Assembly: GCA_008632985.1 (NCBI GenBank)
Contig: QPGO01000097.1
Coordinates: forward strand, 62,001 to 126,000
Source of the DNA: Psammoneis japonica
Lineage: Eukaryota
Direction: 5' to 3'
DNA: 64,000 nucleotides
Positions 7,958 through 52,386 of the stretch are shown piece by piece. Made by a program: the position numbers and the translations under genes. Position 1 is the stretch's first letter. Every line of letters starts with the position of its first letter. The notes beneath the pieces were generated by a model. That model had not been told where the DNA came from. It made no database searches and worked only from the letters and a program-made list of their open reading frames with translations.

Positions 7958-10900
7958 TGCAAGCTCAAGCTGAGGTTGATGTCAAAACAAGGAAGTGAGT
8001 CACTCTCCATCGTGAGTCTATGCGTCGACCGTTCTTCGCGCGCGCTCGCACGCACCCGAAGGTCTCCTCATAGACTCTCGCGGAAGTAAGACGGACGATG
8101 TACCAGGGTCGTATGTAGGCCGTTTGTTACGGTGCCGTTTTTCCGTCGCACCGACCGGCGGGACATGCCGCAAGCATCATCGTTTCATTGCTGTTATCGG
8201 CATGAACGACTCCCAACTCCCAAGGCTGTCTAGCACTGTAGAATGAATCTTTTAGGATTTCGAGCATGACATGACAAAACCCCACAGTCACATGACCACC
8301 ACATGGCTGGCTCCTCGTTCCATCTTTCACAGTCGGACGTGTTGACAATTTTCTCTCGGCTCGATCGCGCTGGCCACACATGGAATGCCAGCTCTCCTCG
8401 TTCGTTTCTATGGTCAGGGTGACACACCCAACATTTGTTCCACAGTTCATCAATCACCAAGAACTGCCATGCTGGCAGGTGATCGTAAGCCAGTTGCTGT
8501 GGGAGCCGAAAAGAGACGGGAGGACACAAGCAGTGAGAACATCTAAGACACAGATTTCAAGATGAGTCAACAATTGTGAGCAAAATCACAACACCAACTT
8601 GCCAATTGACCTTTGTGCACATTCTTTCGTGTCTCCTGTGTGCATGTGCTTGTCGCTGCAACCCTGTTTGTCTCACGCCATTGCCAGAGGCATTCACACT
8701 GTCGCGAACTGATGAAATGCTGCGCGAAGTGCAAGCCCAATTGAGTGAGTTTGAATGCCAACAATTAACGACATTGTCACATGATCTTACCTCCTTGACT
8801 CAGCGTCATTAAATGAATGCACCCAATGCACTCAAATCTACCCAAGCGGCAAGAAATCGACACAACCGTCCAAAAATCTCCAAAAATGTCACAAAACAGC
8901 GACGCCCAACCGACAATGAGACCCCAGACTGTCTTTGCCTCGAATCTCAGAGCTGTGGTCAAACCACGCCTCACACAGACACCAACAAACAACACCAATG
9001 TGTTGCATGGACTGAGAACCTGCGTGATGACGAGGAAGAGCCCAATCCGTGAGTGAGCACATTTCTGGCAAAAAACACAAAGCCATTTGTTACGAACGAC
9101 AGAAACAATGGTTGTGCCACAAGAAAGACAATGCCATTGCAAGGCAACAATGAAAATGCGCACAAGTTTCCATGTCATAACTTGCAGGGCGCAACGGAGC
9201 GGAACATGCGACGACAATCGACGACACATGTCAGCACCTGCCGAAAAAGTGACGATTTTGCACTTGGTCAGTCTCAGGGATAAATCAATCAAACATTTGC
9301 CAATTTTCTCCATTCCAACACCATGGCACGCTTCAACAGCGAGTGTCCGAATGACCACTGAACGGTGTGAGGCACAGTGGTCGATGCGCCGATGAAGTTT
9401 TATTTTCAACTCTCACCAGCTCAACAAGACAAGAGACAGGATCAATGCAGGTCAATGCCCGAAACTCAATCTCTCCATCCGGCACTTTGATTTTCCACGG
9501 GCCAATGAGTTCAACTGCCACTTCCGACCAGGGAGTTAATGTGGCTTCTCGCTTGGGCAACTCTCCACAGCCAGGACCCAATGTTTTGTTGCGTTGACAA
9601 TCAGCACAAGAGCACTCATCACACATGCGACGCAACCCAGGATGATGACAATGAGCCTGGATCGTCTCACACATGCGCTGGCTTCTGGCATGGCCAAGGA
9701 CGAGATGACACCACCGCAAGATGTCGGGCATGAGCGCAGTCAGCAAACAGATTTTCCACTGTCCTGGAGGATCATTCGGTCACGTGCAACAACATGCAAG
9801 CGGTCGATTGTTCACATGTTCCATAGGAAACAATCAGGGCAAGCAACGCGCATCTGGCTCAACTGTTGGTCCTCGAACTGATGCTCCTGAGTGTGTTGTA
9901 ACGTCATTGGATTCTGCATCTCCTGCATGGTGGGGCAATTCAAGAAGGAATCGAACAGCTCTGGCTCATCCACAAAGAAAGAGAAGAAGTGTGAGTGGCC
10001 TTCATTTTCAATGTTGCGACAACACTTGAATCGGCGTGCGCCAAGCTCCAAGTCCTCATCGCGGAAATCCTCAACTTCGGATGGTTCCTCACTCGGCACC
10101 AACTTCGAATTGAGCGGAGCAAAATCGACAACAGTTCCTTTGCCTGGGGCCAAGCTCTTCCCTTCAGAGGGAGGATCCATGCAAGGCAAACAAGAAAAAC
10201 AATCAGCCAAGACATTCAATCGGCCTTCAATGTGATGAAATTGAGGGGCAAAGTCTTCCAGAAAGAGTCGCCAACGAAGTGCACGCTGTGAATTCAAGGT
10301 GTGAAAGGCAAGGTTCTTGTGGTCAGTGAATGCATGCAAGTCGCCGCCAAGGAGCATTGTTCGGCATTCTCGGAAGCACATGACAATGGCTGGCAGTTCT
10401 TTTTGGATCGTCGAACAGTTTTGTTGCACCGCATTGAGCTTTCGAGACCAGTGTGCAATGGGCTTTCCATCCTGTGCAATCACTGCGCCCATCTGGCAAT
10501 CACTTGCATCGGTGTAGATGTGGAAGGGTTTGTTGTGATTCGGACATGCCATTGGTGTTTTGGCCGCTGGGACTGCTTTCATCTCATCGAACGCCGCCTG
10601 ACATTCCGCTGTCCATGTCCATGAGCCTTCACCTGTAAGATCTGTCAAGGGTTTCAACAGGTGAGAACGCTGAGGCCACACATTGTGACAACACGTTGCA
10701 GTGCCAAGGAACGAACGAAGCTGCTTGATGTTTTCCGGAGGTTGCATCCGCAGGATGGCCTCCACCTTTTTCTTCCACGGACGAATTCCAGTCGGAGTCA
10801 GCCAATTCCCAAGGAAATCCATTTCCTGCACACACCATTCGCATTTCAAGGGATTTACTTTGAATCCAGCTTCCTCCAGGCGTTGCAAAAGTTTGTCAAG

Positions 10901-11263
10901 ACGGTCAAGGTGAGTGTCAAAGTCGTCATCAAATTGAGCGAGATCATCAACATGCGCATCAACATCCAAGTCGTGCACAGTTTTCTCAACCAAACATTGC
11001 ACAACATCTGGAGCCAGCTTCAGACCCATTGCCAAACGGCAGTGTCGGCACTTTCCAAAGGGTGTCACGATTGTCGTCAAGTCCTTGGAATCGTCATCCA
11101 ACTCGAGTGCATGGTGCATCATTGAGAGGTCCAATTTAGTCAAAAACTTGCACCCGGCTCTCTTCTGCAGCACATCTTGAATGATTGGCAAAGGGCAAAC
11201 CTTGCGCTTGAGGGCTTTGTTGAGTTCCCGAAAATCGCTGAGTTGCTGCACTCGACCATCCTT

Positions 11264-11712
11264 TGCAGTGTGCGTGCAGACAAAAGGTTGTTTTTGTCAC
11301 GCCCATTGTGACATTTAAAGGCTGCAACACGTCGCCGTGATGCATCAACTCTTGTTGGCAGCTGTGTGTTGCACTCCTCCCCATGCATCACGCGTCCGTG
11401 CGGCTCTTTACCAACGTGCACTGACACTGCACGGTTTTGGCGGAACAGTGTGGGTGCGTGCGAAGGAACACACAGAACTGCACAGAGTTTTACGCGTTCG
11501 ACAGTGATCAACGTTGCTGCAGACAACTCCCACTCAGGGTTTCGAACCCCTGGCCTCCTGCCTGATGGTTGCGCATTGAACCACTCCGCCACGAATTCAC
11601 AACGCAGTGTGCATGCAGACAAAAGGTTGTTTGTGTCACGCCCATTGTGACATTCAAAGGCTGCAACACGTTGCCGTGATACATTGACTCTTGTTGGCAG
11701 CTGTGTGTTGCA
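11264..11712 (-). mobile_element. 449-bp TRIM (miniature non-autonomous LTR element) inserted in the Gypsy-1 RT
   Basis: 110-bp direct repeats at 11264-11373 and 11603-11712, 4-bp TSD CCTT (11260-11263, 11713-11716), minus-strand polypurine tract GGGGAGGAG next to the 3' repeat. Removing it restores IWPKKDGRV in RT. Confidence 0.93.
11524..11600 (-). ncRNA. tRNA-derived sequence with Pol III A and B boxes inside the TRIM; not a functional tRNA
   Basis: Minus strand reads GTGGCGGAGTGGTTCAATGCGC...CAGGGGTTCGAAACCCTG: A box with D-arm-like pairing and B box within a T-arm. Anticodon and acceptor stems are degenerate. Confidence 0.75.
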
Positions 11713-14282
11713 CCTTCTTTGGCCAAATAAAAGCACCAGCAGCCCACTCCGTTGTTCCGGCCTCTTCAAGAACGCCAAGAGTCGCCAAATGATCCAGCTC
11801 TCATTTGAAAGTCTTGAGATCATTGTGCGGCACTGCGTGCGCTCGAGAATGGTGAGGAACAGCGTCAGGATCAATGTCAAGGTGAACTTTTTGCCAGCAC
11901 ACTGGCCAAGAGTGCCATCAAAAAGAGCAGCATGTTTTTCCAACACAAGGCGTAATTTTTCTTGTTGTTCAGTGGTGAGGTGCTTCTGAGCCGACGCTGC
12001 TTCAGAAGGGGACTTTTCCTCATGCTTTGCATCGAGGATGTGGCTGTCCCATGCATCATCATCATCAGCCAGCTCATCAGTCAAGTCGTCAAGCCACTGC
12101 TGGATGCTGATCTGATGGTTTCTTGGTTTCATTGCAATGCTTGAATCAAGCCACTTGATGATCCCGTGTTCGAAATCTAACGTGATGCCTGCTCTCGCCA
12201 AGAAGTCCTGTCCAAGGATCACATCGTGCTGGCAAGGTGAGTCAAACACACATGCATGCATGCCATCAATGCGTTTTGTCTTGTCAAATTCAGGGAGCAC
12301 CATGTCCCGCAGTCGAACGCAACAAGCAGATTTGAATTCTCCCGCCAACATCCGAAACTTCGCAACAATTGGCCCTGTTTCCTCCAATGCTGGCACCGCT
12401 CCAATTGGCAACACCCACGCATGAATCATTGAACGGGTTCCACCGGAGTCAAGCAACACCCGCATCACGCGCTTGCTTTCCTCATCTTGCACAAATTGTG
12501 CCGTGAATGAGGTTGCAGGGACCACGTTCAAAGGTTTGGTTGGTTTTGTTTTTGGGGTTGGTGCAGCGCACTCAAGTCCCACATCGTCTTTGTCATTCAC
12601 AGTGTGATTTTCGAAATCGTCATCATCAAACAAATCAGCAGCACACACATGACAATCATCAGCACAATCAGTGCAATCATCAAACATGTGGGAATCATGA
12701 GCGACACACTCGGACGACAGCTCTTCAAGCTCATTGGGTCAGTGTCGACCGCGTCCTGAGAAGCGACCACCAGGTCGAAAACTTCCCGCTCCACCTTGAC
12801 ACTCACAAGGCCCTCCCATTGAATCAAGATGATGGCTTTCAGCAGACCAATCATTGGGAGGAGCCATTCTGGCTGGATTGCCGCAACCGCCGCCATCTGC
12901 ACTGGTTCGGGTGTCGTTTTGATGTTGCATGTGGGAGCCACCATCTTCATGATGCTCGCCGCTGTTGCCGCCAGAGTTGCAGTTTCCTCAACCGCCACAA
13001 TTTCCTTGGCCACTGCCACGACCTTGACAGCCACGGCCTTGCCAACCACGACCTTGATTTCCACCACAACCTCGACCTCCACCGCGACCGCCACCTCGAC
13101 CACCACGGCCACCATGCCCGCGACCGCCACGATCAGTTCTTGGACAGCAGTTGTTGGAGTCGGGATTCATGATGCAATCTTTCCACTTGTGATTGTGAGT
13201 GTGCAATGGACGCTGGGTTTCTGGGTCAACGCGATTGCCTTTCTTCTCATTGGAGCCACCTTTGGACTGTCCATCTTTGCGCTTTTTCAACGTCTTCTTG
13301 TTCCCATCCGCAAACGATTTCTCCGTGCTCACATGCGTGACAATCTCCGCCAGTGCATCATTTCCAATCGTGCGTCCTGCTCTTGTGTGCATCTCGCGCC
13401 ACGACAGAGGGAAGCTGTCAAAAATCATCTTCTTCTTCTGGTTCTGAGCAACAACTGGATTGTTTCCCTGCAACTTGTTTGTGCATTGCACCAAAGTTTC
13501 CATTCGATCTGCGTGTGCCTGCACTTCAATGTCATGGAAAAAAAAAATATGTCAAGCTAGAAACAAAAAAAAAACTTCAAAAATGGCCTCCCGGAATTGC
13601 CATGGTGAGATTGGACCATTCATCTTCGGCTGCATCCACCAACACTTCTTCAAAGTTGTCAAACAATTCTTCTCCTGCAGTGAATTCAAGTTTTGCAGCC
13701 AGTTTACAAAAACGGTCTTCCACAGACAACAACGCTTCAACCCCATTGCTTCCATCAAAACAAGGGCACTTTTTCGTACGCGTGCTACCATCATCACACG
13801 ATTGGGTCAGTTTTGCAAGTTCCAAATCGAATGGGCAAATTTCGCAGCATGCAAGATGCGCGGTTCCTCAAGGCTCTCACGATTGCTCATCAGGCCAAGT
13901 TGGTCCACCAAGGAACTGTTTCAAGCACTCTACCTTTGACTCGAGTTGTGCCACTCGAATCGCCAAATTCTGTTCGCGTTGTTTCCGTGTCTCCTTTTCT
14001 CGTTTTTGTTCCAAAGCCCAGTTCGCTGCCTTTGCTCTCAAAGTTCTCTTCTCTTGTTTTGCAAGCCTGTCAGTTGCATCGTTGTTTCTCATTCAGCTCT
14101 TTACAATCGACTGCAGTTGCAGCGCAAGCTCAAGCTGAGGTTGACGTCAAAACAAGGAAGTGAGCAGACCGAAGAGAGGGAGAGCCCAAGCGTCAGCGAG
14201 CGCTGGCGAGCCCTCTCAAACGGCCACGTTAATCCAATGTCCAAAATCAGTGCTGTGCGTCAGAAGCGTGCGAGTGAGTCAC

Positions 14283-14513
14283 TGCAAAAATGTCAAAGTC
14301 ATTCTGTCAACGTCATTTCGGACATTTCCACATGTCGCTCACGTCATCAAGATTCAAATCTCTTCTCTTCTCACAAATTCGGTCGTTGAGACCTCTCGTC
14401 AGTTTGCAATCATAATTTCTCCACAGAGAACTTTGACAACGACTTCTGCTGCTCTGTTGCAACCTTGAGCTCTTGCTCTTTCTAACACAAGCTACTTTGT
14501 CGCATCTTTAGTG
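14283..14513 (+). repeat. Copia 5' LTR
   Basis: Aligns end to end with 21720-21949; followed by GTTGCGAGTCCC, a putative primer-binding site. Confidence 0.93.
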
Positions 14514-15076
14514 GTTGCGAGTCCCAATTTCGCATGGCGTTCGTTCCGCCGCCGGGAAAGCGCTGTCGATTGGGTCACCGAAGCTTCCATCCGCCACCAA
14601 CGTCGATTCGTTCGTTTCCGCCAAAACGGTCGCGTTGTTTGACGTCTGAACGACACCTCCAGTCAACATCAGACACTCCCTACGTTGCCACCAGCCGCCG
14701 TTGTTCGATTGACAAGCTGGCAGCCCATTTTGCTTCGCGGAATCGACCCACGATCTCCAACGAGTTCCGAATTTGAAACCCCAACGTCCGTGTGTTTCAA
14801 ACCAAACCCGGATCGAGTTCCTGCGACTCTCCGGTCCTTTGTCAATCAAGAACAGCTCCTCAAGTCACGCCACGGGTTGCTCATGTCGTGCTGTTGATTG
14901 TTGCAATCGTTTGGCGCCATTCTACAAGCTCTGCAACTCGAAGTTCGTTCTGTTGATCCGTTGTTGAGTTGACTGCGTACATTTGGCACCACAGCTACAC
15001 AAAAGTTGTCTCTGCCATGACGAACAATCCTCCTCCGCCCAAGACTCCCACCAGTCAGCCTCCGCCACCTCCCGCG

Positions 15077-15235
15077 GCACAACAAAACCAGTCGACAGGT
15101 GCTGCTGCACAACAGAGCCAGTCGACCGGTGCTGCCGCTCAACAGAACCAGTCTGCTGGTGCCACCGCTCAACAGAATCAGTCTGCTGGTGCTGCCACTC
15201 AACAGAACCAGTCTGCCGGTGCCGCTGCTCAACAG
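15077..15235 (+). repeat. 30-bp coding tandem repeat (about 5.3 copies, AQQNQSxGAA) at the Copia gag N-terminus
   Basis: GCTCAACAGAACCAGTCTGCTGGTGCYRCY-type units with period 30. Confidence 0.9.
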
Positions 15236-18200
15236 TCGTCACGCTCCAACCAACAGTCGTCGCGTTCTGACGTTCAGCACCCTCGTCCACCTCCAATCCG
15301 TGGCGGAATCCATCCGGAATGTGGTCGCCACATGGGTGGATCACCGCTGAATGATGAGCACCATCTCAAGCTCAAGCGTGCCTGTCGCTCCACCAACCAG
15401 TCTCGGGACAAGAAGATTCTTCCTCATGTAGAGCGCAATCTCCGAGATGCCTGAGATGGAACCGACGTTGTCAAGTTTGACGGGAACCTGGAGATTCCCA
15501 ATGGCAAGACGAATGAGCTTGACAAGGAACACTTCGTTCAAGCAGTCCGCACATTGGTGAATGAGCATGGATTGGAAATTTTTTTCATGAAGTTGGACAA
15601 GAAGGTCGTTGACCTCTTCACTCACCTCCACAGCTTCGCCGTCGACGAGGTCATTGCGGAGTGTGACGAACGCGCCAACAAGGCGACAGACGATTCGGCA
15701 CGCGACGAATGTGAGCATGACGACATCAATCTTTCACGTCTTGTTGTCGAGTCTCGCATCACTCACCAATTCCGCGAGAAGATTGAAACTCAATTTGGTC
15801 ATCGCGACCTCTTCCGATGCTGCCCTGGGCAAATCATTTTCACGATGGCACTTGAGACTTGCAATGCCTCCACCATGCATGATGTTGCTCAAGCCGCTGG
15901 AGACTTCAAGGCTTTGACGCTTGACTCCTGTGCTGGCGAGGATGTCACCAAGTTTGCTGCCGAAGCTCTCGTCTCACCAAGATCCTGCAAACAGGATGCG
16001 CGCTCCCCGTCTCTCTTGGGTCCAATCTCCTTTGGAAGTGCTCCAAGACCTCTGGCGAAGCATTCAATCGAGCAATCTTGCCCAGTTGGACAAGGTGACG
16101 GCCATGGAACGCAAGCATTGTTTGACGGACCCAGCGCCACTTGCCAAGGACAAGGACTGCGAAACTCTTGGTCCGACCGCGTGCATCACCTTCCTTCAGA
16201 CGAGGCATTGCAGCTTCGTCACCGACAAGGACTGGCCCAGTCTCTCTGCCAAACTCCCTCAGGGTGGCCACACCAAGCGCAAGGGAGCTTGCAATGCTTG
16301 TGGTGCTCCAGACCACTGGGCTGACGACAAAAAGTGTCCCAAGCATGCGGAGCATCAGCGCCTGAAGAAGCTTGCCCGCCAACAACAAAAGGGCCAACTG
16401 CCAGCAGGTGCTCCACCCCCTCCTTCCACGTCTCCTCCCGGTGCTGTTGCTCCAGCAAATGCACCTGCGGACAAACAAGCGAAGTTCAAGGAGCTGTTGG
16501 CGAACGAGCCCCATCGCTGCACTTGTCCGGCTGATCTCAACCAGCCAGTTGTGAACAAGTGTGGTTCGACTGCTTGCTTTTGTGCCAAGTGCACGTGCCG
16601 CCACACTGGTGTCAAGGGCCTCTGTGCTGGTCACAAGGATGCCGCCCATGCCAACAAGCCACCCAAGAAGAAACAGCCAGATGCCAACCTTGCTGCCGTG
16701 GCCGATCCCAATTCTGGCGTGCCTGCTGGGCCACCCGCTCAGACCACCGCCGATCCTGCGTCTTCCAAGCCCGATCCGTCGTCCGACGATGATGCTCCCC
16801 CCGTTTCGGAGGAGGAACCAGTCTGGACCGGGTTCCATTGCTGTCCTGTCGAGGACGCATCCGGCAACACTGCTCCCGTTGCGCAAGTCTCCGTCCTTTC
16901 TGGTCCCACCGTTGAGAGGGAGCAGCGCACAATTTTGGTTGAGACGGTTGACCCGGAAGACGCTGACGATTTCAGCGATTGCTGCGACACTTGCGACAAT
17001 TTGGGTTGGGATGATTCGGTCATCCTCTTTCCTGCTTCGATGTTCCCACCGGAGCCTTCTATCTTGGACGATCCGCCGCCTCCTGTTGAGTCTCCTGAAC
17101 TTGACAACGAGTTCTACGATGCGATCTCTGAGCCTGCTCCGAACATCCTTGACGTGGAACCTCAGCCTGCTTCTTGCTGGCTCTGGTCCCTCCTCAAGAT
17201 CCCAGTCTTTTGGTTCTCTGCTCTTCTTTGGGAAGGCATCCTGTGGCTGGCGGGTGCTGGTGGTGATCCGCCGCTGCCCTCGCGTCGCCATCGCCGTCTC
17301 AAGCGCAAGCCTGCTCTTTTCAGTCATCCGTGTCGTTGGGGCGTGATCTCCTGTGCGATTGCGCTTTGGCTCTCCGTCTGTCTCGGACGAGCCCAGCCCC
17401 ATCCTGGTGTTCCTTTGCAGCACCTCTGCTCTCAGACCACGCGGTTGTTCAAGCTTTTGACGAACGTGTCGTCTTGACCCCTGGCACCCTGCTGCAGTGT
17501 CATCATCTGAAGATCAAGCAGTTCCAGCGTGAGGTCTTGGCACCAGAGGGAGCAACGCATGACACGACGACCTCACCTTTCAAGCTTCACGAGTTGATCA
17601 AGGCCTGTGAGCTTGATGACTGCTTTGACACCTGTGAGGACCTGCCTGTCTTTCAAGAGTCCTTCTTTGATGCTGCTGCCTTTTGCGAGTCGGACTTCTC
17701 CAGTCCTGACATCTTTGGGATCTCCGAGTTGTGTTGAGCCCACCATGTGGTCGACTGCACCGAGTTCCAACCTTCTGTCGCGGAGCTGGTTGCTCAAGCT
17801 GCCAGTGCGTCCCCTGCTTCTATTGGACAACCTGCTGCAGCTGCTGTCCAGGCTCTCACAGGAGCCACCCACCTGTCTTGCCTGGCTGGGGACCCCGCCG
17901 TTCTCATGTCCATCAGGCAGTCGTCACTGGAGGTTGTCTTCGACACTGGCGCCTCGCTCGCCATCTCTCCAGATGAGGAAGACTTTGATGGCGAGATTGA
18001 ATTGCCATCTAAGCCTCTCAAGCTTGGCGGGATGGCTGGCGGCCTTCCCGTCAAGGGCGTTGGTGCTGTCTCTTGGTGCTTCCAGGCTGCCGACGGCAGC
18101 GACATCAATGCCCAGACTCGCTGCTGCCATGTCCCTCGTTCCAAGGTGCGCCTCCTGTCCCCTCAACGTCTCTTTCATCCTGCGGGTGTTCAAGGCCATT

Positions 18201-21200
18201 TTTGGGGTGACAGTGAGATCTTCAAGATTTGTTTTTACAGCACACCCGAGATCCAAGTTCCATGCGATGAGCGCTCGAACTTGCCAGTTGGTTGTGCATC
18301 TTGCGGTGCTGTGTTCACTCCTCAGGTCAATTTGAGTGCCATCGCTGACCCTGACAATCTAAATCTGTCCTCTGGGCAGAAGCTGCTCGTGGACACACAT
18401 GCTTGGTTTGGGCATCTCAATTTTCCATGCATCCAAGCTCTTCTCTGCTGGCCTCCTTTCACCGCTCTCAAGTTCGCGTCTGCTTCCAAGTGTGACATCC
18501 CCAAATGCGACACCTGCGAGCATGCCAAGGCTCACCGCCGTCCTGCCAAAGCCCAACAAAAGACTGCTGTCCCTGAGCGTGATGGTGCACTCAAGGCTGG
18601 TCATCTCCATCCAGGTCAGTCTGTGAGCGTTGATCACTTCGAGTCGCGTCTGAAGGGTCTCACCTGCGATTCCTGTGGCAAACCCTCCTCCCAGCAGCAT
18701 GTTGGCGGCTGTGTTTTCGTCGATCATGCCTCTGGGTTCATGCACATTGAGCATCAAGTTGGTTTCTCTGCAGTTGAGACGATGCGGGCAAAACAAGGTC
18801 ATGAGCAGATGGCTCTGGGTCACGGCGTCGTCGCGCAGAGGAGTGCCTCACCGACAATGGTGCTTTCAAGGCCAACAAGTTTGTCACCCACATCTGCGAA
18901 TCTCAGCAGTGCATCCACTGTTGTGGAACAAACGCCCATCACCAGAACGGTGTTGTGGAGCGGTCCATTCGTTCCATGTCCAACATGGCGCGAGCCATGA
19001 TCCTCCACGCGTCCATCCATTGGCGCAGTGGTGTTGACAGCTCCTTGTGGCCTGTGGCAGTCAACTGTGCCACCCACATTTGCAACAACACTCCAGGATC
19101 AAATGGACTTTGTCCTGCCGACATTTTCACCGGATCCACCGTCCCACGCCACCGTTTGCTCGATTTACATGCTTGGGGTTGTCCTGTCTACGTCTTGGAT
19201 CCCAAGTTGCAGCAAGGACAGAAATTGCCGTGTTGGCAACCATGATCACGGCGTGGTGTTTTTCTTGGCCTCAGCTTGGTTCGCGCCAGCGAGGTTCCAC
19301 TGGTCCTGAACTTGAATGCCGGGTCCATTGCTCCTCAGCATCATGTGGCATTCGACGATCTCTTTGCCACGGTTGCATCGATCGAGAGGGAGAGCGAGCC
19401 ACCTGATCACTGGGAAGAGCTCTGTTTGGAGAGTGTCACCCAGATGCCACTGGATTCGAGCAACAAACAATTGTTCCTCCAAGATGATTGGCTTGCTCCC
19501 ACAGAACTCAAGCAGAAACGGCGACATGAAGAACGTGAGCATCTCATCAGGAATGCATGTCAACAACAGCCTGCCACCACAAAGTCTTCAAAGCCTGTCG
19601 CTCCAGTTGTCAAACCGCCGCCATCCACACGTCCCAATGCGTCCATGCCATCCAATGCAGACGACTTGCCATTGGCACCACCCCAGGAACCGCCATTGCA
19701 GCCACCGCAAAACCCCAATCCATCAACGAGCGATTCTGAAGTTGGTCACACACTGCCTCTCATGCATCCGCCACCTCAATCTGGCCCAGAGTCATCGGAC
19801 ATCCCAGTCCCGGCTTCTGATGTTCCAGTCCCATCCACGACTGAGCAGAACGTGCGTCGCTCACAAAGATCAAACAAAGGCAAGCGAGCTACAACTCGTT
19901 TTGCCGACGAAGTCTATTCAGCCTCAGTCGAGCCATTGGATGCTGGAGGACACCATTCCCAGCTCGCCTGTCTCGCTGAGATCCAGACCTGCCATGACAG
20001 TGGACAATTGGACATTCAAGACCCTCGTGTCTACGCTACAAAGGCCAAGAAGAATGACGATGCGCTGAACATGCGAGAAGCTCTCACGGGCGAATTCGCT
20101 GAGCAATGCGTCGAGGCCATGAAGACCAAAGTGATTTGCACTTGTTCATTGTAAAACTTGGAAATTTGTCAAGCGAGATTCATCTGTGAATGCATTGAAA
20201 TCAACATGGGCATTTAAGTTGAAACGCTCACCCGACGGCACTCCGCTGAAACTCAAGGCTCGATTTTGTTGTCGTGGCAATTTGCAGCAAGAGGGAGTCG
20301 ACCACTTCGAGACTTACGCTCCAGTGGTCCAGTGGTCGACTGTTCGTTTGCTGTTGAGTGCTGCATTGCAAGAAGGGTGGACAACTCGTCAAGTTGACTG
20401 CACAAATGCGTTTGCACAAGCTGATGTCGCTGAAGACGTTTGTGTCGAACCTCCCAAGTGCTTTGGTCATCCTTCAGGTACGAACGTGGTTCTCAAGCTG
20501 CTCAAGACGCTCTGTGGGTTGAAACAAGCCCCGAAATGCTTCTGCGAAAAGCTCCGCGAAGGATTGCTTGAACGAGGGTGGATTCAGTCAGCTGTAGATC
20601 CATGTCTGTTCTTCAAGGATGGTGTGATTTGTGTTGCACACGTCGACAACACTGTCCTCGCTGGTGCCAACGGAGACCTTCTGGAATGCGAGATTGCCGC
20701 TCCAGGAATTCAAAAGGAAGAACAACGTCATGTTTTCGAGCTTCGTAACAAAGGAGAAGTTGGCGACTTCCCAGGTGTCAAGATTCGCAAGACCGGACCC
20801 AAGGAGTTCCTGCCAACTCAACCAGGTCTGACCGACAAGGTCCTCAAAGCTGCTGGCATGGAAGATTGTCGTCCTTCTCCCACGCCTTGCACTGCTTCTC
20901 CATGCCATGCTGATTCAGAGGGAGCCGATTTTGCCAAACCATGGGATTGCCGATCTGTTGTCGGGATGCTCATGTGCTTGTCGGCAAACTCCCGTCCCGA
21001 TGTCACGCGCGCTGCTCATCAAGCCGCTCGCTTCTCCTGCGCTCCTGAACACTCTCATGCTGTTGCAGTGAAGCGCATTCTTTGTCATCTTCAAGGTGCC
21101 AAGGATGAGGGCCTCCATCCATGCCCCAGCAACAACAAACGAGTTGATTGTTTCGTGGATGCCGATTTTGCTGGACTCTGCGGTCATGAAAACTCCCAAG

Positions 21201-21719
21201 ACCCCGTGAGTGTCAAGTCTCGTACAGGATGCGTCATTTTGCATTGTGGCTGTCCTGTTCTGTGGGTCTCCGAGCTACAGACGCAGGTTGCCCTCTCTGC
21301 TGTGGAGGCAGAACATCTGGCACTGTCAGCTGGCATGCACGACCTGATTCTGATCCGAGAAATTTTGAAAGAAATTCAGCATCACGCACTCGGGCGCAAG
21401 AATGCTTCTGCTCCCACTGCTGCCAAATCCAAAGCCTTTTCTGATGTGAAAGACGGTGCGATTCCCTCCTCCATTGTCTGCGAGGACAATCAAGCGTGTC
21501 TCAAGTTTGCGAAAATGGCGAAGATGTCTCCTCGCACCAAACACATTGGTGTTCCCTGTCATTGGTTCCGCACTAAAGTTGAAGTGCTCGAGATCGTCAT
21601 TGAGCCTGCAGGAACCGACTCTCAGCTTGCAGATCAGTTCACAAAGGGGTCAGCCCAAGCTCTGTTTGAATCCGGTCGGAAGAGTCTGTCTGGCTGGTGG
21701 CTCTGCGGTTGAGAGGGAG

Positions 21720-25350: not shown

Positions 25351-25357
25351 TTTTCGT

Positions 25358-38673: not shown

Positions 38674-39204
38674 TTGAAACTCAGTTCAGTGCAGCAAATT
38701 GTTCTGCCATTGAGAAGAAAGAGCTTCTCGCGGTGGCAATGTGTTTCAAGAAATTCCGCACCATGCTGCTTGGAGCTGATTGCACTGTTTTCACTGACCA
38801 CAAAAATCCCACCTTTTGCATGCTCAACTCTCAATGAGTGCTCAGGTGGCGACTCTTTCTGGAAGACTTTGCTCCAACCTTCAAGTGTGTTGACAGCAAG
38901 GATGACCCATTGGCGAATTGTTTCTCATGATTGCCCCACGTGGAACCTCCAACAAAGGGAAGTGTGCTCCCAACAAGGGCAAGTTGATTGACTTCAAGGC
39001 AATTGACACTGCCATGTTGCCTCACAAAGAAGAGGAGCTTGACAACCTGGATCACGTGTCTCATTTTTCCTGTCATCGTGAAGAGCCATCTCACTTCTGC
39101 TCATCATTTGTGGATGATCCTGAATTGTGTGAATCGCTTTTAAGCTGTCCCTTGCTGCATGACATGCAAAACCCTGCAACCATGCAACGGATTCAAGAGT
39201 GCCA

Positions 39205-42200: not shown

Positions 42201-45200
42201 AAACTGTTGAACATGTGAAACATGTCCATGGAGTCTTGGCAGAGGTGTGGGACATCCGCATGTTCCCTCCTCCCCTCCACAAACCACCACTCCCCATTTT
42301 CATTTGTGTGTGTTGTCCTCCCAGAGTCCATCAACTGCATCAAGTGCTCCACTTTGTCAAAAGCAGCGCCGCACTCCGCTGTCATAATTTGATCTCTGGT
42401 TTTGTCTGTCATGTTTGCCATGTCCTTGAATTTGCGCCAGCAGTTGTTTTGCCAATGGGCCAACAATTGGTCATTTTGCGCAACCGGGTTCATGGTTTGT
42501 GGTGATGTTTTGTCTCCTGCTGTGGGCATGGGTGGGCCCCTGCAGCACATTTTTCATTCAACCGCAAAAGCGCAGTGTGAGGTGCATCCAGAATGATCAT
42601 GACCAACACACCACAGCTCACTTTCTCCTTTCCACAGATTAGTTTGACTTTGCAGTCTGTCATCATGCTCAAAGCAATCATTGTTCCCAACACATGCAAT
42701 TCATTGCACCTGCAAATGTTTTCATTGATGCAAAGAATGCAATGAACTGGCATTTTTGTGCCATTTTGTGTCATGTTTCCTTGCTTCCCAGTGCTGTTCC
42801 CCCACTTTTCATAGTCTGACCAAGTGAGGCCATTGCTCCACAACTGCAGCAGTGCAACTCACCCAACACCACCTTTTTCAACATGGATGGCAACGGTGTT
42901 TGGCAGGGTGAGGATGGGGCAGTTGCATGTCCATGCTGCCAAAGATCATTCGTGTGAATGCTCACCCATTTCCATCACAACCCGCAATGTTTCTTGTTTG
43001 CTTGCAAGAAGGCCAACTTGTCGTGTTGAGAGCCCATCACCCCGCACCTGTTGCCGGACATCTCTGTCAGCATTGTGGGTCAAACTTGCCCTGGGAGGAC
43101 GGTCAATGCGCATGGCACGTGGACAGAGGAACTGGACCTTTCTTCATCATCAGATGACTCGTCACATCCCAGGCTGAGGCGATCATGATGGGGGGGCATC
43201 TGTTGCAAACATCCAACTTGGGTTAATTGGCACCTTTTGATGATGACGTTTCCCCTCTTGGGTCACACTGCAATGAAGAGGAGCATTGCTGCATGTCGTT
43301 GGACATGTTGTCAGATGAGAAAGCAAGTCAGAAGCCAGCTCATTTGATGCATTGCCCAATGCAACCATGGATGATTCCGAGCCACAACATGATGATGATT
43401 CTGCATTGTGCATTGTCAGACACAGACAACAAATCACTCAGCAATGACAGCAGATTGGGAAAGGTCCATCAAAACCCATTTGAGCGCGCGTTTGCCAGCT
43501 TGTTTTCCCTGAGCAACCTCAACGGTGCCTGCGCAGAGCTTTGCAAGCTTGCAGAACACTGCAGAGCACCGCTTCACCTGTGTGACAAGATCACTGAATT
43601 CACCAAAAGACACTGCAGCAGCACATTCCAGGTGGGCATGCAAATGCCACGCCACAGCAAACCAATGATCATGGAGAACTGCCACAAATCATTTCCTGGT
43701 CCCGAACGCGAGATGATGCCAGTCAACCTGGAAAGTGCAACTGGGGAACATGGTGAGAGAACTGTCCAAGTTCCAAGATGGAATTTCAAAGAGGTCTGGG
43801 AATTGTTCATGCTGGACACTCACACGTGGGCATCCAAAAGCAATCTCGATGACCCAAACAAACCATTTGGAATGTACGTTGCCAAGGGCAATGATGACAA
43901 GTGTGTTTTGGCCGGCAAGTGGCACAAGAGGACATGCACCGTGCCAGAGTCACACATCCTGACAAACAGTTCCTTGATGATTGTTTGATTGTTTGCATGG
44001 ACAAGATGGGAAAAACAGCCTTGACAGGATCTTGTGCAACTGGAAAGCTGTTGACAAACATGCACCACTTCTTTTGGGTGTTGACGTGGCAAAAAATCTG
44101 CATGAGCCAACAGTCAAGGTCCTTTGGTTTGTGCTGGACATGACGCATGACAATTTTGGTGACAAAGAATGCACTGTGAAGGTCATGTGCACGGTTGTTG
44201 ATCAATTCTTTTAGACTTTTGCACTGTAAAAAATGGTGACAAGGCTTGCCAGAGACTGGACCATTCAGGTCATCACCGGTGATGATCACACAAACGAACT
44301 CAACCATTGCTTGGATGTTGGGGTGAAGTTGCGCGCGGTGCTCCTCTTCTTCAACTGTCTCTCCAGGCAGTTTGGAGAAATGGAGAGCTTCCTCCAAATT
44401 TTGACAACAAAGAACATGTTTACCTTTCAGCATGTGGGATTTCTTGAGGGACCAACCATGAGTCTTGATGCAAGACCAAACGTCAGGGCATCCAAGAGTT
44501 TTCCTGACAACGCTGTTGGTGCGGATGACTTCCGTGACATGTGGAATGTGTGACGCAACTTTGGCTTGTGGCAAAGGAAGGGAAGAGCAAGGAATTCCAG
44601 TTGGGGAGACCATTTTGTTGTCTCCAAAAATTGCTTTTTGGATGCACACATTGAAGTCATGCTTTTGAGCTTGGGACCAAACAACTCCATTCCAAAACCA
44701 TTGGCAAAACATTCCATGTCATCAAAATCAACCTCATTGGGAAATTGGAAGGAAGGGTTGGGGTTGACCTCATCGTGGGACAGGGCAAAGTCATTGACCA
44801 CCATGGCAAGAAGTCAGTTGTGATTTGTGTAGAACGTGCACATGAATCACAACAGCGCATGCTCTGGTCAAATGCATTTTGGGGAGAGGATGCACTGTTG
44901 TGAAATGCGTGGAAATTTTTGCATGTGGAATGTGTGCTCAAAACCGGGCAGAGAGCCAAGCACTAAAATTCTGGGAAGTGCTAGAAAAATGAGGCAGGCA
45001 GTGGAGGCTGGGGGTGACTTGGGCGCAGAGGGTGCACCAGCCACTGTGGTGAGGCGTGCACAAGGTGGAGCCACTGAAAACAGCTGTCAAAGACAACGTT
45101 TAAAAATGAATTCAATGTCATTGTCAAATTGCAATGTGTTGAAATCAAGCAAAGGACACATTCAATTTGATTGCCAAAAATAAATGAGAAAATGCTTGTG

Positions 45201-45353
45201 ACAGACATCCACATGAAACACATCTGACAAAGGCAGTGTGTTGTTTGCTTTTGCATGCAAAAATGCCAAACAAACAATTGACATGCCTGACATCAATTGG
45301 CACAATAAATTGGATGAAGACAATTGAACACCGCCATGTTGCGGCCTCTGATG
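39205..45353 (-). mobile_element. 6149-bp Plavaka-like (CMC/EnSpm-related) DNA transposon, degenerate
   Basis: TIRs CATCAGAG...CTCTGATG and 2-bp TSD CA (39203-39204, 45354-45355); removal restores Gypsy QECQFVD. Plavaka-like peptides (VPRWNFKE, LAGKWH, CMDK, ITGDD, KEKVSCGVLVMIIL) and an accessory ORF (TASNEALGLLTLENH...WNDKGMQCFNDL) at 39531-40460. Family assignment is from memory of motifs. Confidence 0.8.
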
Positions 45354-46801
45354 CAATTTGTTGATGTGGAATTGAGCAACATGCAACAACAGTGTCCAGA
45401 ATGTTTTGTCATTGAATGTGTGAACCAGTGTCCTGTGATTTGTTGTCGTGCTCATTCGAGTGATCCTCTGACTTTATGGAAAATCTGCATTCCTGCTGCT
45501 TCAGTGCATGACATGACACGATGGCATCATGGGATGCTGGGACATGTGGGAGTGCACCGAATGCACTCCACTGCTGGCGCACATTTTTGTCATCCCATCC
45601 CTTGTTGGACTTGTGAAGAATTTCATTGTGCTGATTGTCAGCGCTCAAAAACTTTGGGTCCTGGACATGGGAATTTACCCGAGCGTGAAGCATTGTTGCT
45701 GCCATGGAATGAAGCAGTGGTTGGCCTCATTGGTCCCTGGAAAATTGATGTCCACAGGCCAGGAGATCAAATTCAATGCCTTGACTTGCATTGACGCTGT
45801 TTCAAATGTCACTGAGCTTGTCCGCATTGACAACAAAACCCCACCTCACATTGCCCAGCAGCTCAAAAATTGTTGGTTGTCTCATTGTCCTTGTCCCAAC
45901 CATTGCATTCATGACAATGGTGGAGAATTCATTGGAGAGGACTTTCAACTGTCATTGCAGCAGGTGGGAGTGGATGATGCACCAACTGCTTCCAGAAATC
46001 CACAGGCCAATGTGGTGTGTGAATGCGTGCATCAAATTGTTGGCAACATCTTGTGTGCTTTGCTTCATCTTTGTTCTCCATGGAACTTTGGCAAGCAAAT
46101 CAACTGGCAGACAATGCACTGGCAACAGCAATGCATGCCATGCAATGCATGGCATCCCATGCTCTCAAGATTTCTCCCAGTGCTGTGGCACTCCAACATG
46201 ACACGACACTGGATCTGCCAGTTCTCGCGGATCTTGCTGCTGTTCAAGAACATCAACAAGCAATTGTTGGCACAAATCTCCACAGAGCAAATGCCAAACG
46301 CCAATCCCATGATTTTCAAGTTGGCTGCCAGGTTCTTGTCAAGGCTGTTGATCCCACCAAGCTTGCACCTCAAGCACATGGTCCATGCCCAATTGTTTAA
46401 GCACAAGCCAGCAATGCTGTTGTGGTTCAACGTGTGCCTCATGTGATGGAACATCTTGACATTCAGTGTGTTGCACCACACCAAATTTGAGGTCAAGGGT
46501 TTTCCCCCAACATTTGGGTTTCCCTTGTTTCCTCTCATGGAATTTGAATTGGAATTTTGAATTTTTTAGCCCCAGATGATTCTCGCGATTTGAGTCATGG
46601 AAGGGAAGAGTGTGCAGTGTCTTGCACCCTGTTTTTTTCTGACACACAGCACTGACAATTCTGTCAGATGTGATGCTCACAATTTTGTTGTCACTCAATC
46701 ATGTCTTTGTCTTGTTGGACCTTGCACATGCATTGTTGTGGGCCACTGAAAACCTGGCCTCACTGTGGTGAGACCAGGATTCGCGGACTCTAAGAGGGAT
46801 G

Positions 46802-48511: not shown

Positions 48512-48601
48512 TTAAAAGGCAAGTAAATTGAAAATCAAAAAGGTGTCATCAATGTGACCAAGGCTTGCCAGTTGTTGTCTCACTCAACTTTCTTGCCACC
48601 G

Positions 48602-51600
48602 CAGCCAGCTTTCTTGTTGTCTTTCCCAGCATGAGCAAATTTACAAATCCAATGTCGTCGTTACATCGTCAAACCCATTTGAGAAATGGCGCTGACCAGA
48701 CGAATGTTTTTAAGACTTTGACAAAGCAACTGCAATGCATTCAGCCAAGCATTCTTGAGTGGGAGAGAGTCGGGCGGATGGGAGTGAAAATGAAGGAATG
48801 AAGTTGCTGTGCGGCTCAAGAAAAAAAAGTCAAACAATGTTGACAACATCACTCTGATGCTGCTGTTCCATGGAATGACAAACAGCAGTGAATGGAGCTC
48901 CTCCCTGGCTCGCATCCACTCTAGATTCATCGCAAAGACACAAATGTCAAACCTCAAAATGGAAAAGTGCGGCACTTGCAAGTGAGTGTTCATGGATTGC
49001 ATCGCCAATTCATGGCATTAAAGAGGTTAAATGCAGTTGTCAGGAGGCCAGCCATGGATTGGAGAATGGCGTGTGGCCATGAAACAGGTCTTGTGTTGAT
49101 GTTGTCATCTGATCTCGGTGTCAAGAAAAGGGTCAATTTCCCTTCATCGCACATTGAGTCACGTGTCTTGAACCCCGCATGACCCATGCGACTCAAAATT
49201 TTTGGAAGAATGACCAGACTTTGACCCCCAATGGAGCCACAAAATACACAAGACATGAGTTAGCCGGGGTGGGGCCAGTTGGTCGCACACGTTTGGGTTC
49301 GATGTGATGAGCAACTGGCCACACCCTGCAGGAAAAGCTGTGGCGCGCGCGCGATCGAGCAGAAGCAACAAAGCAAAAAACACGGCATGGGTCAAGACGT
49401 TGCAAAGCAGTGACATGACAACAAGCAACGAGAAGAAACCCAACTTGACCCAGGAACAAAGCACACAAACATTGTCCAATGGCTTTGATCTTGTCTGGAA
49501 ATGCCAGCTGGCAGACAAGTGAACAGCGTTTGCATTGCTCGCCATGGTGTTGTTGTGTGTTGTCATGCGGCTGTCATTGCGCTCAAAGGACGGGGATCTG
49601 TTTTGCCCACAGTGACTCTGTTCTGCCAACAGTCGATTTTTCACTGTGTTCAATCTGAGGTTGTTTTGAGAAGCACTTCGCGACAACCCTGTTCGCACCG
49701 TTAAATGGAAATTTTTTTTGTCCAGATTCCAGAGTTCTTTCGGGGTGTTCTGTGAGATTTTTGAATTGCGGCACACATGTTTAAAAGACAAAAGAAATTT
49801 TAATGACATGCAAAAGCTTTGGAGATGGACGTGAATTTATCTTCCATGCAGACCACGCAGATTGTGTGCCGGCGGAAAATCCACCGCATGTCCACTCACT
49901 CAGCAGCAATTCTGCGCATGTTCCACTCACACCTCACACACATGCACACACCTGCACAGTCCAATGACCACGCACACGTGCGCGAGATGCCACAGCCAGT
50001 TTTCTTGTTGTCTTTCCCAGCACGAGCAAATTGACAAATCCAACGTCGTCGTCACATCGTCAAACCCATTTGAGAAATGGTGCTGACCAGACGAATGTTT
50101 TCAAGACTTTGACAAAGCAACTGCAATGCATTCAGCCAAGCATTCTTGAGTGGGAGAGAGTCGGGTGGATGGGAGTGAAAATGCAGGAATGAAGTTGCCG
50201 TGCGGCTCAAGAAAAAAAGCCAAACAATGTTGACAACATCACTCTGATGCTGCTGTTCCACAGAGTGACAAACAGCAGTGAATGGAGCTCCTCCCTGGCT
50301 TGCATCCACTCTAGATTCATCGCAAAGACACAAACGTCAAACCTCAACTTGTGGAACATGCACATGCATGTGGACATGAGTTGGCCAGGGCAGGGCTAGT
50401 TGGTTGCGCACGTTTGGGTTCGATGTGATGAGCAACTGGCCACACTCTGCAGGAAAAGCTGTTCGGTGGCACGCGCACGATCGAGCAGAAGCAAGAAAAG
50501 CAAAAAACACGGCGTGGGTCAAGACGTTGTAAAGCAGTGACATGACAACAAGCAACGAGAAGAAACCCAACTTGACCCAGGAATGAAGCACACAAATGCA
50601 TTCCAACAGCTTTGATCTTGTCTGGAAATGCCAGCTGGCAGACAAGTGAACGGCGTTTGCATTGCTCGCCATGGTGTTGTTGTGCGTTGTTGTGCTGCTG
50701 TCATTGCGCTTGAAGGACGGGGATCTGTTTTGCCCATGGTGACTCTGTTCTGCCAACAGTCGATTTTTCACTGTGTTCAATCTGAGGTTGTTTTGAGAAG
50801 CGCTTCGCGACAACCCTGTTCGCACTGTCAAATAGAAATTTTTTTTGTCCAGACTCCAGAGTTCTTTTGGGGTGTTCTGCAAGATTTTTGAATTGTGGCA
50901 CACATGTTTAAAAGACAAAAGAAATTTTAATGACATGTGAAAGCTTCGGAGATGGACACAAATTTGTCTTCCATGTGGACCATGCAGATTGTGTGCCGGC
51001 GGAAAATCCACCGCATGTCAACTCACTCAGCAGCAATTCTGCACATGTTCTGCTTGCACCTTGCACACGCGCACACACCTGCACAGTCCAATGACCGTGC
51101 ACACGTGCGCGAGATGCCGCAGCCAGTTTTCTTGTTGTCTTTCCCAGCATGAGCAAATCGACAAATCCAACGTCGTCGTTGCATCGTCAAACCCATTTGA
51201 GAAATGGCATTGACGAGTGTTTTTAAGACTTTGACAAAGCAGCTGCAATGCATTCAGCCAAGCATTCTTGAGTGGGAGAGAGTCGGGTGGATGGGAGTGA
51301 AAATGCAGGAATGAAGTTGCCATGTGGCTCAAGAAAAAAAAGTCAAACAATGTTGACAACATCACTCTGATGCTGCTGCTCCACAGAATGACAAACAGCA
51401 CTGAATGGAGCTCCTCCCTGGCTCGCGTCCACTCTAGATTCATCGCAAAGACACAAATGTCAAACCTCAAAATGGAAAAGTGCGGCGCTTGCAAGTGAGT
51501 GTTCATGGATTGCATCGCCAATTTGTGGCACCAAAGAGGTCAAATGCAGCTGTCAGGAGGCCAACCATGGATTGGAGAATGGCGCACAGCCACAAAATGG

Positions 51601-51775
51601 GTCTTGTGTTGATGTTGTCATCTGATCTCGGTGTCGAGAAAAGGAGGGTCAATTTCCCTTCATCGCACATTGAGCCACGTGTCTTGAACCCCGCACGACC
51701 CACGCGACTCAAAATTTTTGGAAGAGTGGCTGGACTTTGACCCCCAACGGAGTCACAAAACACACAAGACATGAG
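48602..51775. repeat. Tandem segmental array of a 1.39-kb unit (about 2.5 copies)
   Basis: Units start at 48602, 49993 and 51120 (CAGCCAGYTTTCTTGTTGTCTTTCCCAGCA). Copy 2 lacks about 260 bp and copy 3 is partial. Confidence 0.92.
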
Positions 51776-52141
51776 CATTGTTGGTCTCCTGCTCTTTAAA
51801 CCAATGTCTGACGAGAATGCAGTGGGCATGTGTTGTTCATGGCATCTGGCATTTGAAAATGGAACTGACTTTTCGTGGAGCACCTTCATCACACGGGAAA
51901 GTGCGAGAGTCAATTTCCAGCGATTGGGTGGTGACTGACGTTCACCCCCATTCTAGGCCCCCAAAAGTGTGGTGAACTTCGCATCTGTGTGCTGTTAGTC
52001 AATCGAAGTGGGTGTTTGGACGGGGGTTAATTTTTACACGTGGCATCATGGAGCTGGGACGGAAAGCCGGGAAAGAAGCGACAGAGCAGGGCGCGCGCAG
52101 GTGCGCACCGGTAGACGGACCTACCGTAGGTCAATGGTTCA

Positions 52142-52256: not shown

Positions 52257-52386
52257 ACTCTCCTACCGTAGAATGAACTCTACCGCCCGGTAGTTCCTAC
52301 TGTACATACTCATACCGTAGATAAGACAGATTTTGTCGTCGCGAACATCCACATCCCACATCCCACTTCGAACCATCGCATCGACC

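Follow-up and report, generated by a model that had tools for sequence, protein, structure and literature searches.

An Island of Transposon Remnants Depleted in TpA in the Genome of the Diatom Psammoneis japonica: Probable Hypermutation of TA to TG or CA in Chromosomal DNA

Introduction

A:T>G:C hypermutation at TpA only was measured in mutation-accumulation lines of the chlorarachniophyte Bigelowiella natans (2026 preprint, bioRxiv 10.64898/2026.01.13.699255), and a comparable record is described here for a stretch of 64,000 nucleotides from Psammoneis japonica (assembly GCA_008632985.1, contig QPGO01000097.1, positions 62,001 to 126,000 of the forward strand; hereafter the window), in which an island of nested transposon remnants (8254..52000) has lost nearly all of its TA. 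According to the available text of the preprint, TpA is converted in B. natans into TpG or CpA, depending on the strand, in foreign DNA only; de novo events occurred in some of the lines only, and their rate, about 1e-7 to 1e-6 per site and generation, is approximately 1000-fold above background (10.64898/2026.01.13.699255). The targets described are an integrated giant virus (Rho TpA of 0.45) and a virophage; 1-kb windows poor in TpA and rich in CpA and TpG were found to cluster, and reverse-transcriptase and DDE domains were enriched among the TpA-depleted coding sequences (10.64898/2026.01.13.699255). An ADAT2-like deaminase was proposed by the authors as a hypothesis, and the preference of adenosine-to-inosine (A-to-I) deaminases for T or U before the target A is also argued in the preprint (10.64898/2026.01.13.699255). 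For the window, a model that saw only the letters and their open reading frames (ORFs) had proposed a process acting on chromosomal DNA that turns TpA into TpG or CpA in repeats (the original prediction), and had known of no description of it in diatoms. This last statement holds, no report of TpA hypermutation in diatoms having been found in the full-text literature searched (subscription journals and preprint supplements being outside it); the pattern itself is described in B. natans (10.64898/2026.01.13.699255).

On the evidence of its letters, the diatom island matches the defining sequence features of the B. natans hypermutation, as these are given in the available preprint text, among them the clustering of 1-kb windows of this composition and the reverse-transcriptase and DDE domains of the affected sequences. 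In both, TA passes into TG or CA with almost no other change besides the CpG decay of the island, where TA, CG, TG and CA alone are shifted, and in both the change is confined to mobile or foreign DNA, which in the present case means one island compared with its flanks within one window. The rate estimated for the diatom, which exceeds background by two to three orders of magnitude, would lie in the range measured in B. natans. The hosts are different, a rhizarian there and a diatom here, as are the targets (giant virus and virophage against transposons) and the kind of record, with de novo events in B. natans and an end state in the island; the Rho TpA of 0.45 in the giant-virus region compares with 0.08 over 44 consecutive kb here, which is much nearer to saturation. 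The hierarchy of neighbouring bases, the accompanying decay of CpG and the reading of Tyr as Cys or His, all presented below for the diatom, were not met in the available text of the preprint (10.64898/2026.01.13.699255).

Fungal repeat-induced point mutation (RIP) likewise consists of dinucleotide-specific transitions in chromosomal DNA, is confined to repeats, has sharp edges and leaves transposon genes riddled. RIP, however, converts CpA into TpA and so makes TA, AT-richness and stop codons, whereas the island has lost TA at an unchanged GC content and TAA and TAG have all but vanished; because of this opposite direction, the island process is not RIP. The A-to-I deaminases (TadA/ADAT2-3, ADAR and fungal sexual-stage mRNA editing) share with the island the A>G change and the T or U directly before the target A, which they require or prefer. 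These enzymes act on RNA, whereas the record of the island is in DNA, on both strands, and includes a DNA transposon; furthermore, T and then C are preferred after the A in the island, unlike the G favoured by ADAR and unlike the fungal editing motif. The editing of retroelements and endogenous retroviruses by APOBEC3 is similar as an idea, being a deaminase-driven mutational defence against mobile DNA, but APOBEC3 converts C to U on complementary DNA (cDNA) while reverse transcription is under way and gives G>A on one strand, in contrast with A:T>G:C at TpA, after integration and on both strands.

TA Content and Edges of the Island

The island is made up of dead Copia, Gypsy, DDE_1 and other remnants over 44 kb, which were probably hypermutated in place in chromosomal DNA, 5'-TA-3' having been changed to TG or CA on either strand up to the island edges. 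The dinucleotide TA was found 216 times in 8300–52000 (4.9/kb; observed/expected ratio, o/e, of 0.08) and 783 times in the other 20.3 kb (38.6/kb, o/e 0.58), a 7-fold lower TpA level in the island than in its flanks. In 1-kb bins, the TA o/e of 8001–52000 was at most 0.29 in 44 of 44 and at most 0.20 in 43 of 44, whereas 19 of the 20 flank bins presented values of 0.41–0.83, the remaining one (4001–5000) having 0.19. The TG and CA ratios were both raised to about 1.6 (CA 1.61 inside vs 1.13 outside; TG 1.63 vs 1.12) and CG was lowered (0.57 vs 1.02), while the remaining 12 dinucleotides differed by 0.1 or less, with AA at 1.27 and TT at 1.24 inside the island compared with 1.17 and 1.18 outside, and the GC content was 49.5% and 48.5%, respectively. 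GC-biased gene conversion was ruled out, since AT, AA and TT are untouched. Relative to the density of the flanks, which stand in for the ancestral element sequence and make the balance a rough one, about 1473 TA and 1089 CG are missing from the island, against a surplus of about 1439 TG and 1273 CA; the deficit of TA and CG being close to the surplus of TG and CA, nearly all of the lost TA can be explained as transitions.

The longest TA-free run, of 1.63 kb (15431..17059, by direct count), lies within the Copia element, in its gag region, and has a chance of about 1e-28 at the TA density of the flanks. Twelve TA-free runs of at least 706 bp were found in the island, compared with a longest run of 234 bp outside it. 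The edges are abrupt, dense TA ending at 8253 and resuming at 52028 (22 TA in 52001–52320), and the flanks are normal to within about 50–250 bp of them. The counts given by the original prediction were reproduced on recounting, exactly for the absence of TA in 15431–17059 and with 19 TA for the approximately 19 that had been counted by eye in 1801–2400, and its remark that the flanking host genes are normal agrees with the ordinary TA content up to the edges. The erasure of TAA and TAG, which are nearly gone from the island, has filled it with long open frames in several frames of both strands, and most of the 93 ORFs of at least 150 amino acids in the window overlap one another within it.

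Left of the island, a TA-free piece of 204 bp (7815–8018) holds a 41-bp match to 14124–14164 (97.6%) and is followed at 8019–8253 by a CpG-rich patch of 235 bp with normal TA (10 TA, o/e 0.87) and a CG o/e of 1.51. Contigs of sequencing run X1 over 8209–8257 had about three times the single-copy depth, which looks like an unmutated multi-copy piece adjoining mutated ones.

Direction of Change at Conserved Protein Positions

Each polyprotein ORF was aligned with 60 database homologs, and a column was kept if at least 70% of the homologs agreed. The 13 columns of conserved Tyr in the Copia element now read 1 Tyr, 7 Cys, 3 His, 1 Phe and 1 Thr, and the 14 of the Gypsy element 1 Tyr, 7 Cys and 6 His, so that Cys or His stands at 23 of 27 and Tyr at only 2. 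Other conserved residues were retained at 250 of 292 columns in Copia and 175 of 210 in Gypsy (425/502 together; Fisher p = 2.5e-17 against the 2/27 of Tyr). The codons of Cys (TGY) and His (CAY) are the two single-transition products of TAY, and 23 of the 25 changed Tyr are thus transitions at TA; the Phe fits one transversion and the Thr needs two changes. Lesser changes of the TA type were Leu>Pro/Ser, Val>Ala and Ile>Thr/Val, whereas Arg>Cys/His and Asp>Asn are of the CpG type. The original prediction that invariant tyrosines read Cys or His is borne out by these columns, and the nine peptide motifs that it quoted are all present (20639, 20510, 21218, 21305 and 21479, 31785, and on the minus strand 10943, 10496 and 24730). 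Selection against TA in transposon transcripts was also considered and was ruled out by the destruction of invariant catalytic motifs, YxDD reading HxDD or HxDN in the island elements.

Relatives that natively carry Cys or His at these positions were looked for among the Copia and Gypsy homologs, and the relatives proved to be otherwise. None of the 120 Copia homologs listed was Tyr-poor; all 59 reference Gypsy homologs had Tyr at the majority of these columns (the lowest share being 0.64), and 58 of them had neither His nor Cys there, the protein P0254 having His at 2 of 12. Related Gypsy loci from metagenomes, which served as a control with normal TA, had a TA o/e of 0.48–0.98 in 31 of 31 cases; the scan was made with the protein P0264, whose own locus was not recovered, and its best match was 70% identical over a piece of 72 residues, with 63% over longer matches. 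P0264 and P0356, two Gypsy polyproteins of the public protein collection that are 57% and 52% identical to that of the window, are altered in a like manner: His or Cys occupies 12 of 17 conserved Tyr columns in the former and 11 of 12 in the latter, with a choice between the two residues that differs per column from that of the window element. The shared Tyr>His/Cys change indicates that the same process marks other elements, in this or another genome.

CpG Decay as a Second Process

The CG o/e ranged from 0.22 to 0.9 in the island, with 0.22–0.46 between 36 and 47 kb and 0.78 in the young Copia element, whose TA o/e is 0.08. This CpG depletion, accompanied by a gain of TpG and CpA, is the customary sign of CpG methylation and reflects the decay of (presumably methylated) CpG alongside the loss of TA. 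The decay of methylated CpG is present in the island, as the CG/TG and CG/CA differences between copies indicate, yet it cannot remove TA, and it accounts for about 1089 of the approximately 2700 extra TG and CA. Since TA is near saturation where CpG decay has barely begun, TA erasure is the faster of the two processes, and because the two losses offset each other the GC content is unchanged. The original prediction needs a correction on this point, as CpG decay supplies part of the excess of TG and CA and, through Arg>Cys/His, part of that of Cys and His.

The CpG decay of the same island (CG o/e 0.57) lends some support to the suggestion that TA loss is a side effect of repair, in which frequent T:G mismatches arising from the deamination of 5-methylcytosine would draw error-prone patch synthesis by a polymerase-eta-like mutator of WA motifs, or an over-eager T:G glycosylase would resolve replication errors in favour of G:C. 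The WA hotspot of polymerase eta includes TA, and thymine DNA glycosylase has TpG/TpA as its second-best context. Mutagenesis of the polymerase-eta type, however, hits both TA and AA and has a large share of transversions, whereas AA and TT are not depleted in the island, the lost TA is balanced by gained TG and CA, and 23 of the 25 changed Tyr are TA transitions; moreover, the Copia element reached its low TA ratio although its CpG is largely intact. A repair origin is therefore very unlikely, and error-prone repair in heterochromatin, an option of the original prediction, fits poorly for the same reasons, the undepleted AA and TT and the rarity of transversions.

Changes in DNA after Insertion

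In the DDE_1 DNA-transposon remnant, depletion has reached the level of the retroelements (TA o/e 0.049). The two strands of the island are nearly balanced, with 4345 CA and 4503 TG. The polarised Tyr codons comprise 14 Tyr>Cys (A>G on the sense strand) and 9 Tyr>His (T>C on the sense strand). In five duplicated pairs (2465 aligned columns), 16 sites had TA in one copy and TG or CA in the other, 52 had CG against TG or CA, 28 had CA against TG and 33 presented other mismatches. No site had CG against TA in these pairs, which indicates that one hit removes a TA site from further action. The two long terminal repeats (LTRs) of an element are identical at integration; those of the Copia element (14287..14511 and 21724..21947) differ at 13 places, all 13 at CG- or TA-class dinucleotides and none elsewhere in 225 columns. 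Additionally, of the 40 difference rows shown (of 1623) for the contigs of run X1, 10 have TA in other copies at places where CA or TG stands in the window copy, 5 of these 10 being ACA in the window copy and ATA elsewhere, and all listed difference places comprise 1316 transitions and 248 transversions. The island bins examined (8003–24000) were all multi-copy in run X1, with duplicates differing at target sites.

That the DDE_1 remnant, the LTRs and the tandem duplicates are all affected, and that copies differ as TA/TG and TA/CA, indicates a change in chromosomal DNA after insertion. The core of the original prediction, a chromosomal process turning TpA into TpG or CpA in repeats, is accordingly supported by the protein columns, the strands, the DDE_1 remnant, the duplicates and the flanks, and its observations that both A>G and T>C occur and that DNA transposons are affected were found to be correct. 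Editing during retrotransposition, in which the adenosines of element RNA or cDNA would be deaminated before integration by an ADAR-like or APOBEC-like enzyme (the latter on cDNA), would suit the predominance of retrotransposons among the recognisable elements of the island and the preference of A-to-I enzymes for U before the edited A. It is nevertheless highly improbable in view of the equally depleted DNA transposon, the differences at TA-class sites between tandem duplicates and between the two LTRs, the nearly equal change of both strands (9 of the 23 being antisense-type Tyr>His) and the depletion of the island over its full length, with sharp edges.

The TA content of the Copia element was probably normal on insertion, as is partly inferred from the fact that a reverse transcriptase with HVDN would not have copied it. 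If TA was normal on arrival, about 90% of it has been lost (33 left in 7661 bp) while the LTRs present no background change; in the 1.1-kb repeats, the survival of TA per copy is about 0.46 against a background change of about 0.5%. A TA mutation rate roughly 100- to 1000-fold above background would follow from these values, the repeats by themselves giving an indirect estimate in the order of 100-fold or higher.

Neighbouring-Base Preference

The share of TA retained in the island relative to the flanks, both strands being taken together, depended on the neighbouring base and was lowest in ATA/TAT (4%), followed by GTA/TAC (9%), CTA/TAG (15%) and TAA/TTA (27%), which gives an order of loss of TAT > TAC > TAG > TAA. 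The extremes among tetranucleotides were ATAT, with 0.7% retained, and TTAA, with 61%. A one-strand multiplicative model, in which the A of each strand in 5'-TA-N-3' survives independently, was fitted with survival values of 0.82 (N = A), 0.45 (N = G), 0.24 (N = C) and 0.11 (N = T) and describes the 16 contexts with a chi2 of 14.5, compared with 244 for uniform loss. The same order of contexts was obtained with the 31 metagenome elements as baseline. On the opposite strand, the rule becomes T>C in N-T-A, strongest where N is A, followed by G, C and T in this order. The asymmetry between TG and CA in 2-kb bins changes sign along the island and has no clear link to element orientation.

Authenticity of the Sequence

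Contigs built from exact 31-letter words at about 55–70-fold depth matched the flank without difference, and a contig of 473 bp at single-copy depth matched island positions 21907–22379 with 1 difference. Among the contigs of run X1, 1071 of 6332 were at least 99% alike. Contigs of run X2 covered 12 of 30 bins and those of run X3 none, and the uncovered parts were excluded from the evidence. The island families are highly repeated in the sampled genome, with summed depths of 220 to 68000. An artefact, whether a base modification of repeat DNA misread by a long-read basecaller or an error of assembly or polishing, gains some room from the single sample and from the platform of the assembly and of runs X1–X3, which is not on record. 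It is scarcely credible, however, given the agreement of these contigs with flank and island, the base-context rule that the changes obey and the balance of lost TA with gained TG and CA. In addition, P0264 and P0356 come from other sources and present the same Tyr>His/Cys change with column choices unlike those of the window, which argues against a local artefact.

Candidate Mechanism

Taken together, the data point to an agent that recognises TA in DNA, acts on either strand, causes transitions only, prefers a pyrimidine after the A and is directed at transposon chromatin, its action ending within about 250 bp at the edges. From this pattern, we infer an active and targeted genome defence. 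As the leading, though tentative, proposal, the effector may be an enzyme with a deaminase fold acting on the adenine of TA in silenced repeats. Such an enzyme would be recruited to silenced repeat chromatin and would deaminate adenine to hypoxanthine in TA, best where a pyrimidine follows (TAT > TAC > TAG > TAA); the hypoxanthine would pair with C at replication, producing an A:T>G:C transition on either strand, and the site would cease to be a target once one of its two bases had changed. The coding capacity of the elements is destroyed as catalytic and structural Tyr become Cys or His, and TAA and TAG stops are erased. No deaminase domain was found by Pfam among the ORFs of the window, in agreement with the original prediction, which saw no effector gene in it.

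An agent acting on thymine would account for every sequence result equally well. In this alternative, a TET/JBP-like dioxygenase or another thymine modifier would mark the T of TpA, for example as 5-hydroxymethyl- or 5-formyluracil, which would mispair with G or be mis-repaired to give T>C. In dinoflagellates and kinetoplastids, it is preferentially the T before an A that is hypermodified, and 5-formyluracil causes T>C mutations; on the other side, 5-hydroxymethyluracil itself pairs with A, and no evidence of such a base in diatoms was present in the literature searched. The B. natans authors, in the available text, favour the ADAT2-like deaminase, as a proposal (10.64898/2026.01.13.699255). 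A thymine modifier is considered unlikely.

Several points weigh against adenine-directed hypermutation of repeats as set out above. Restriction to repeats is shown for one island against its flanks within the window, and the context rule uses flanks or foreign elements in place of the ancestral sequence. Adenine deamination and thymine modification leave the same outcome, because T>C at TpA on one strand is A>G on the other, and the strand prediction of the context model at the 23 Tyr codons (15.1 TG expected, 14 observed) pointed the right way but was not significant (log-likelihood of -15.19 vs -15.94). Sites with CA in one copy and TG in the other can derive from TA or from CG; in a stretch present in three copies, 2 of the resolvable sites came from CG and 1 from TA. 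Owing to this ambiguity, only 1 LTR difference is unambiguously of the TA class, and the 4 CA/TG sites of the LTR pair are not all to be credited to TA. The read check, finally, used runs X1–X3 from one sample, possibly that of the assembly itself, with library type and platform not on record, and the island was matched exactly only in part, the share of exact words being 0.59 for 5001–15000; the reads thus lend partial and non-independent support.

The reading of CA/TG discordant sites as firmly TA-derived was dropped after the three-copy test (2 from CG and 1 from TA). By a two-state estimate, about 5.6 of the 28 CA/TG sites would be expected from CpG, a figure that unequal site rates could raise.

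Elements of the Island and Flanking Genes

The leftmost element is a Gypsy-type LTR retrotransposon pol remnant on the minus strand (9381..13828; 20 TA in 4448 bp) with RVT_1 and RNase H, in which the reverse transcriptase/RNase H part (9812–11296) carries HVDD at 10943 and TDASDC at 10496 and a protease-like part lies at 11140–12738. It is followed on the plus strand by the LTR-bounded Copia-type retrotransposon (14287..21947; 33 TA in 7661 bp), with a Gag_pre-integrase/Pol_BBD-like part at 17738–19000 (weak Pfam hits) and RVT_2 at 20135–21712 (Pfam E 8e-33), which contains the motifs HVDN, LCGLKQ, SRTGC, EAEH and CEDN; in its gag region, a 30-bp unit is repeated in 5.2 tandem copies (15080–15235). 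A possible non-LTR (long interspersed nuclear element, LINE-like) reverse-transcriptase remnant on the minus strand (22074..25358), with SCIDN at 24730, is a weak assignment based on RVT_1 at E 0.057 and on a language-model lead to RVT_1/zf-RVT clusters, and a PDB sequence search with its ORF gave no match. The DDE_1 (pogo/Tigger-like) DNA-transposase remnant on the plus strand (31014..33884; 9 TA in 2871 bp) carries CNMDE at 31785, and its ORF 30981–32066 has no Tyr in 361 amino acids. Pfam found nothing on this ORF itself, and the DDE_1 call is based on its homologs: it had 170 protein matches, with DDE_1 just downstream of the matched part in 5 of the 13 scanned. Further along the plus strand are an older Gypsy-type pol remnant (35923..39199; CpG o/e 0.29, TA o/e 0.04) and a Gypsy-type integrase remnant (45183..46499; rve, E 3e-4), and the island ends with repeated units of 1.1–1.4 kb (48599..51775) that are 92–95% alike and differ mostly at CG- or TA-class dinucleotides. 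Applied at E 0.5 to 25 island ORFs, Pfam gave nothing but weak hits and missed the DDE_1 and LINE-like remnants. As for the class calls of the original prediction, Copia and Gypsy are solid, pogo was recovered through homologs only (the 5 of 13 with DDE_1) and LINE is weak.

In the left flank (1..8253), the TA o/e ranged from 0.13 to 0.88 in 500-bp bins, with CpG at about 1 and an ordinary composition. A stretch of this flank at 4001–5000, within ORF 2850–5294, is TA-poor (o/e 0.13–0.24, with no TA in 4406–4640); its GC content is 55–57%, its CpG is normal (0.82–1.07) and its TG+CA reaches only 1.23–1.28, and it adjoins 72-bp coding repeats (4913–5113). This shortage looks like an effect of composition rather than of hypermutation. 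A mild TA deficit at 1–1000 (o/e 0.34–0.50; TG+CA 1.33–1.45) spans two unannotated minus-strand ORFs (171–809 and 810–1373) and may be due to chance or to an old remnant that was only weakly affected.

The right flank (52001..64000) has normal TA and holds host genes for LSM, GDP-mannose 4,6-dehydratase, TENA/THI-4, succinyl-CoA ligase beta, TPM/RING, a sulfotransferase-like protein and Rpb5. The GDP-mannose dehydratase presented 82–89% identity to its 120 listed matches, and those with a readable organism were nearly all from diatoms (Nitzschia, Attheya, Cyclotella, Fragilaria, Fistulifera, Chaetoceros and Epithemia); judged by these matches, the genome that hosts the island is that of a diatom. 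The gene (53395–54991, minus strand) is split over two overlapping frames (54275–54991 and 53395–54441), of which a short intron is the likely cause. No Rfam family was found anywhere in the window.

Biological Significance

A broader proposal, offered with more doubt than confidence, is that one dedicated enzyme system of genome defence is common to diatoms and chlorarachniophytes, and that it recognises mobile DNA which has been silenced and edits this DNA at 5'-TAY-3', either as a natural base editor of adenine in DNA or by modifying thymine to the same effect. Such a system would be the second known eukaryotic repeat-directed point-mutation system after fungal RIP, opposite in direction, working in vegetative cells and spanning the stramenopile–alveolate–rhizarian (SAR) supergroup by age or by gene transfer. 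The presence of one signature in two distant hosts means that the effector may be found through shared deaminase-fold or dioxygenase genes and then tested, and an enzyme that naturally edits one of these bases (adenine or thymine) at a defined motif of double-stranded chromosomal DNA would be of interest to both genome defence and base editing.

The process also bears on how such genomes are annotated. With the stop codons erased, island ORFs can be mis-called as genes, the divergence-based dating of LTR elements is distorted, and transposons are hidden from profile searches, as was the case for the DDE_1 and LINE-like remnants missed by Pfam. Diatoms are dominant primary producers of the ocean, and several species are transformable and open to knock-out. 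If the pattern described here extends genome-wide, diatoms would actively defend themselves against transposons by mutating them, in a way that, going by the preprint text available, has so far been reported only in one rhizarian alga.

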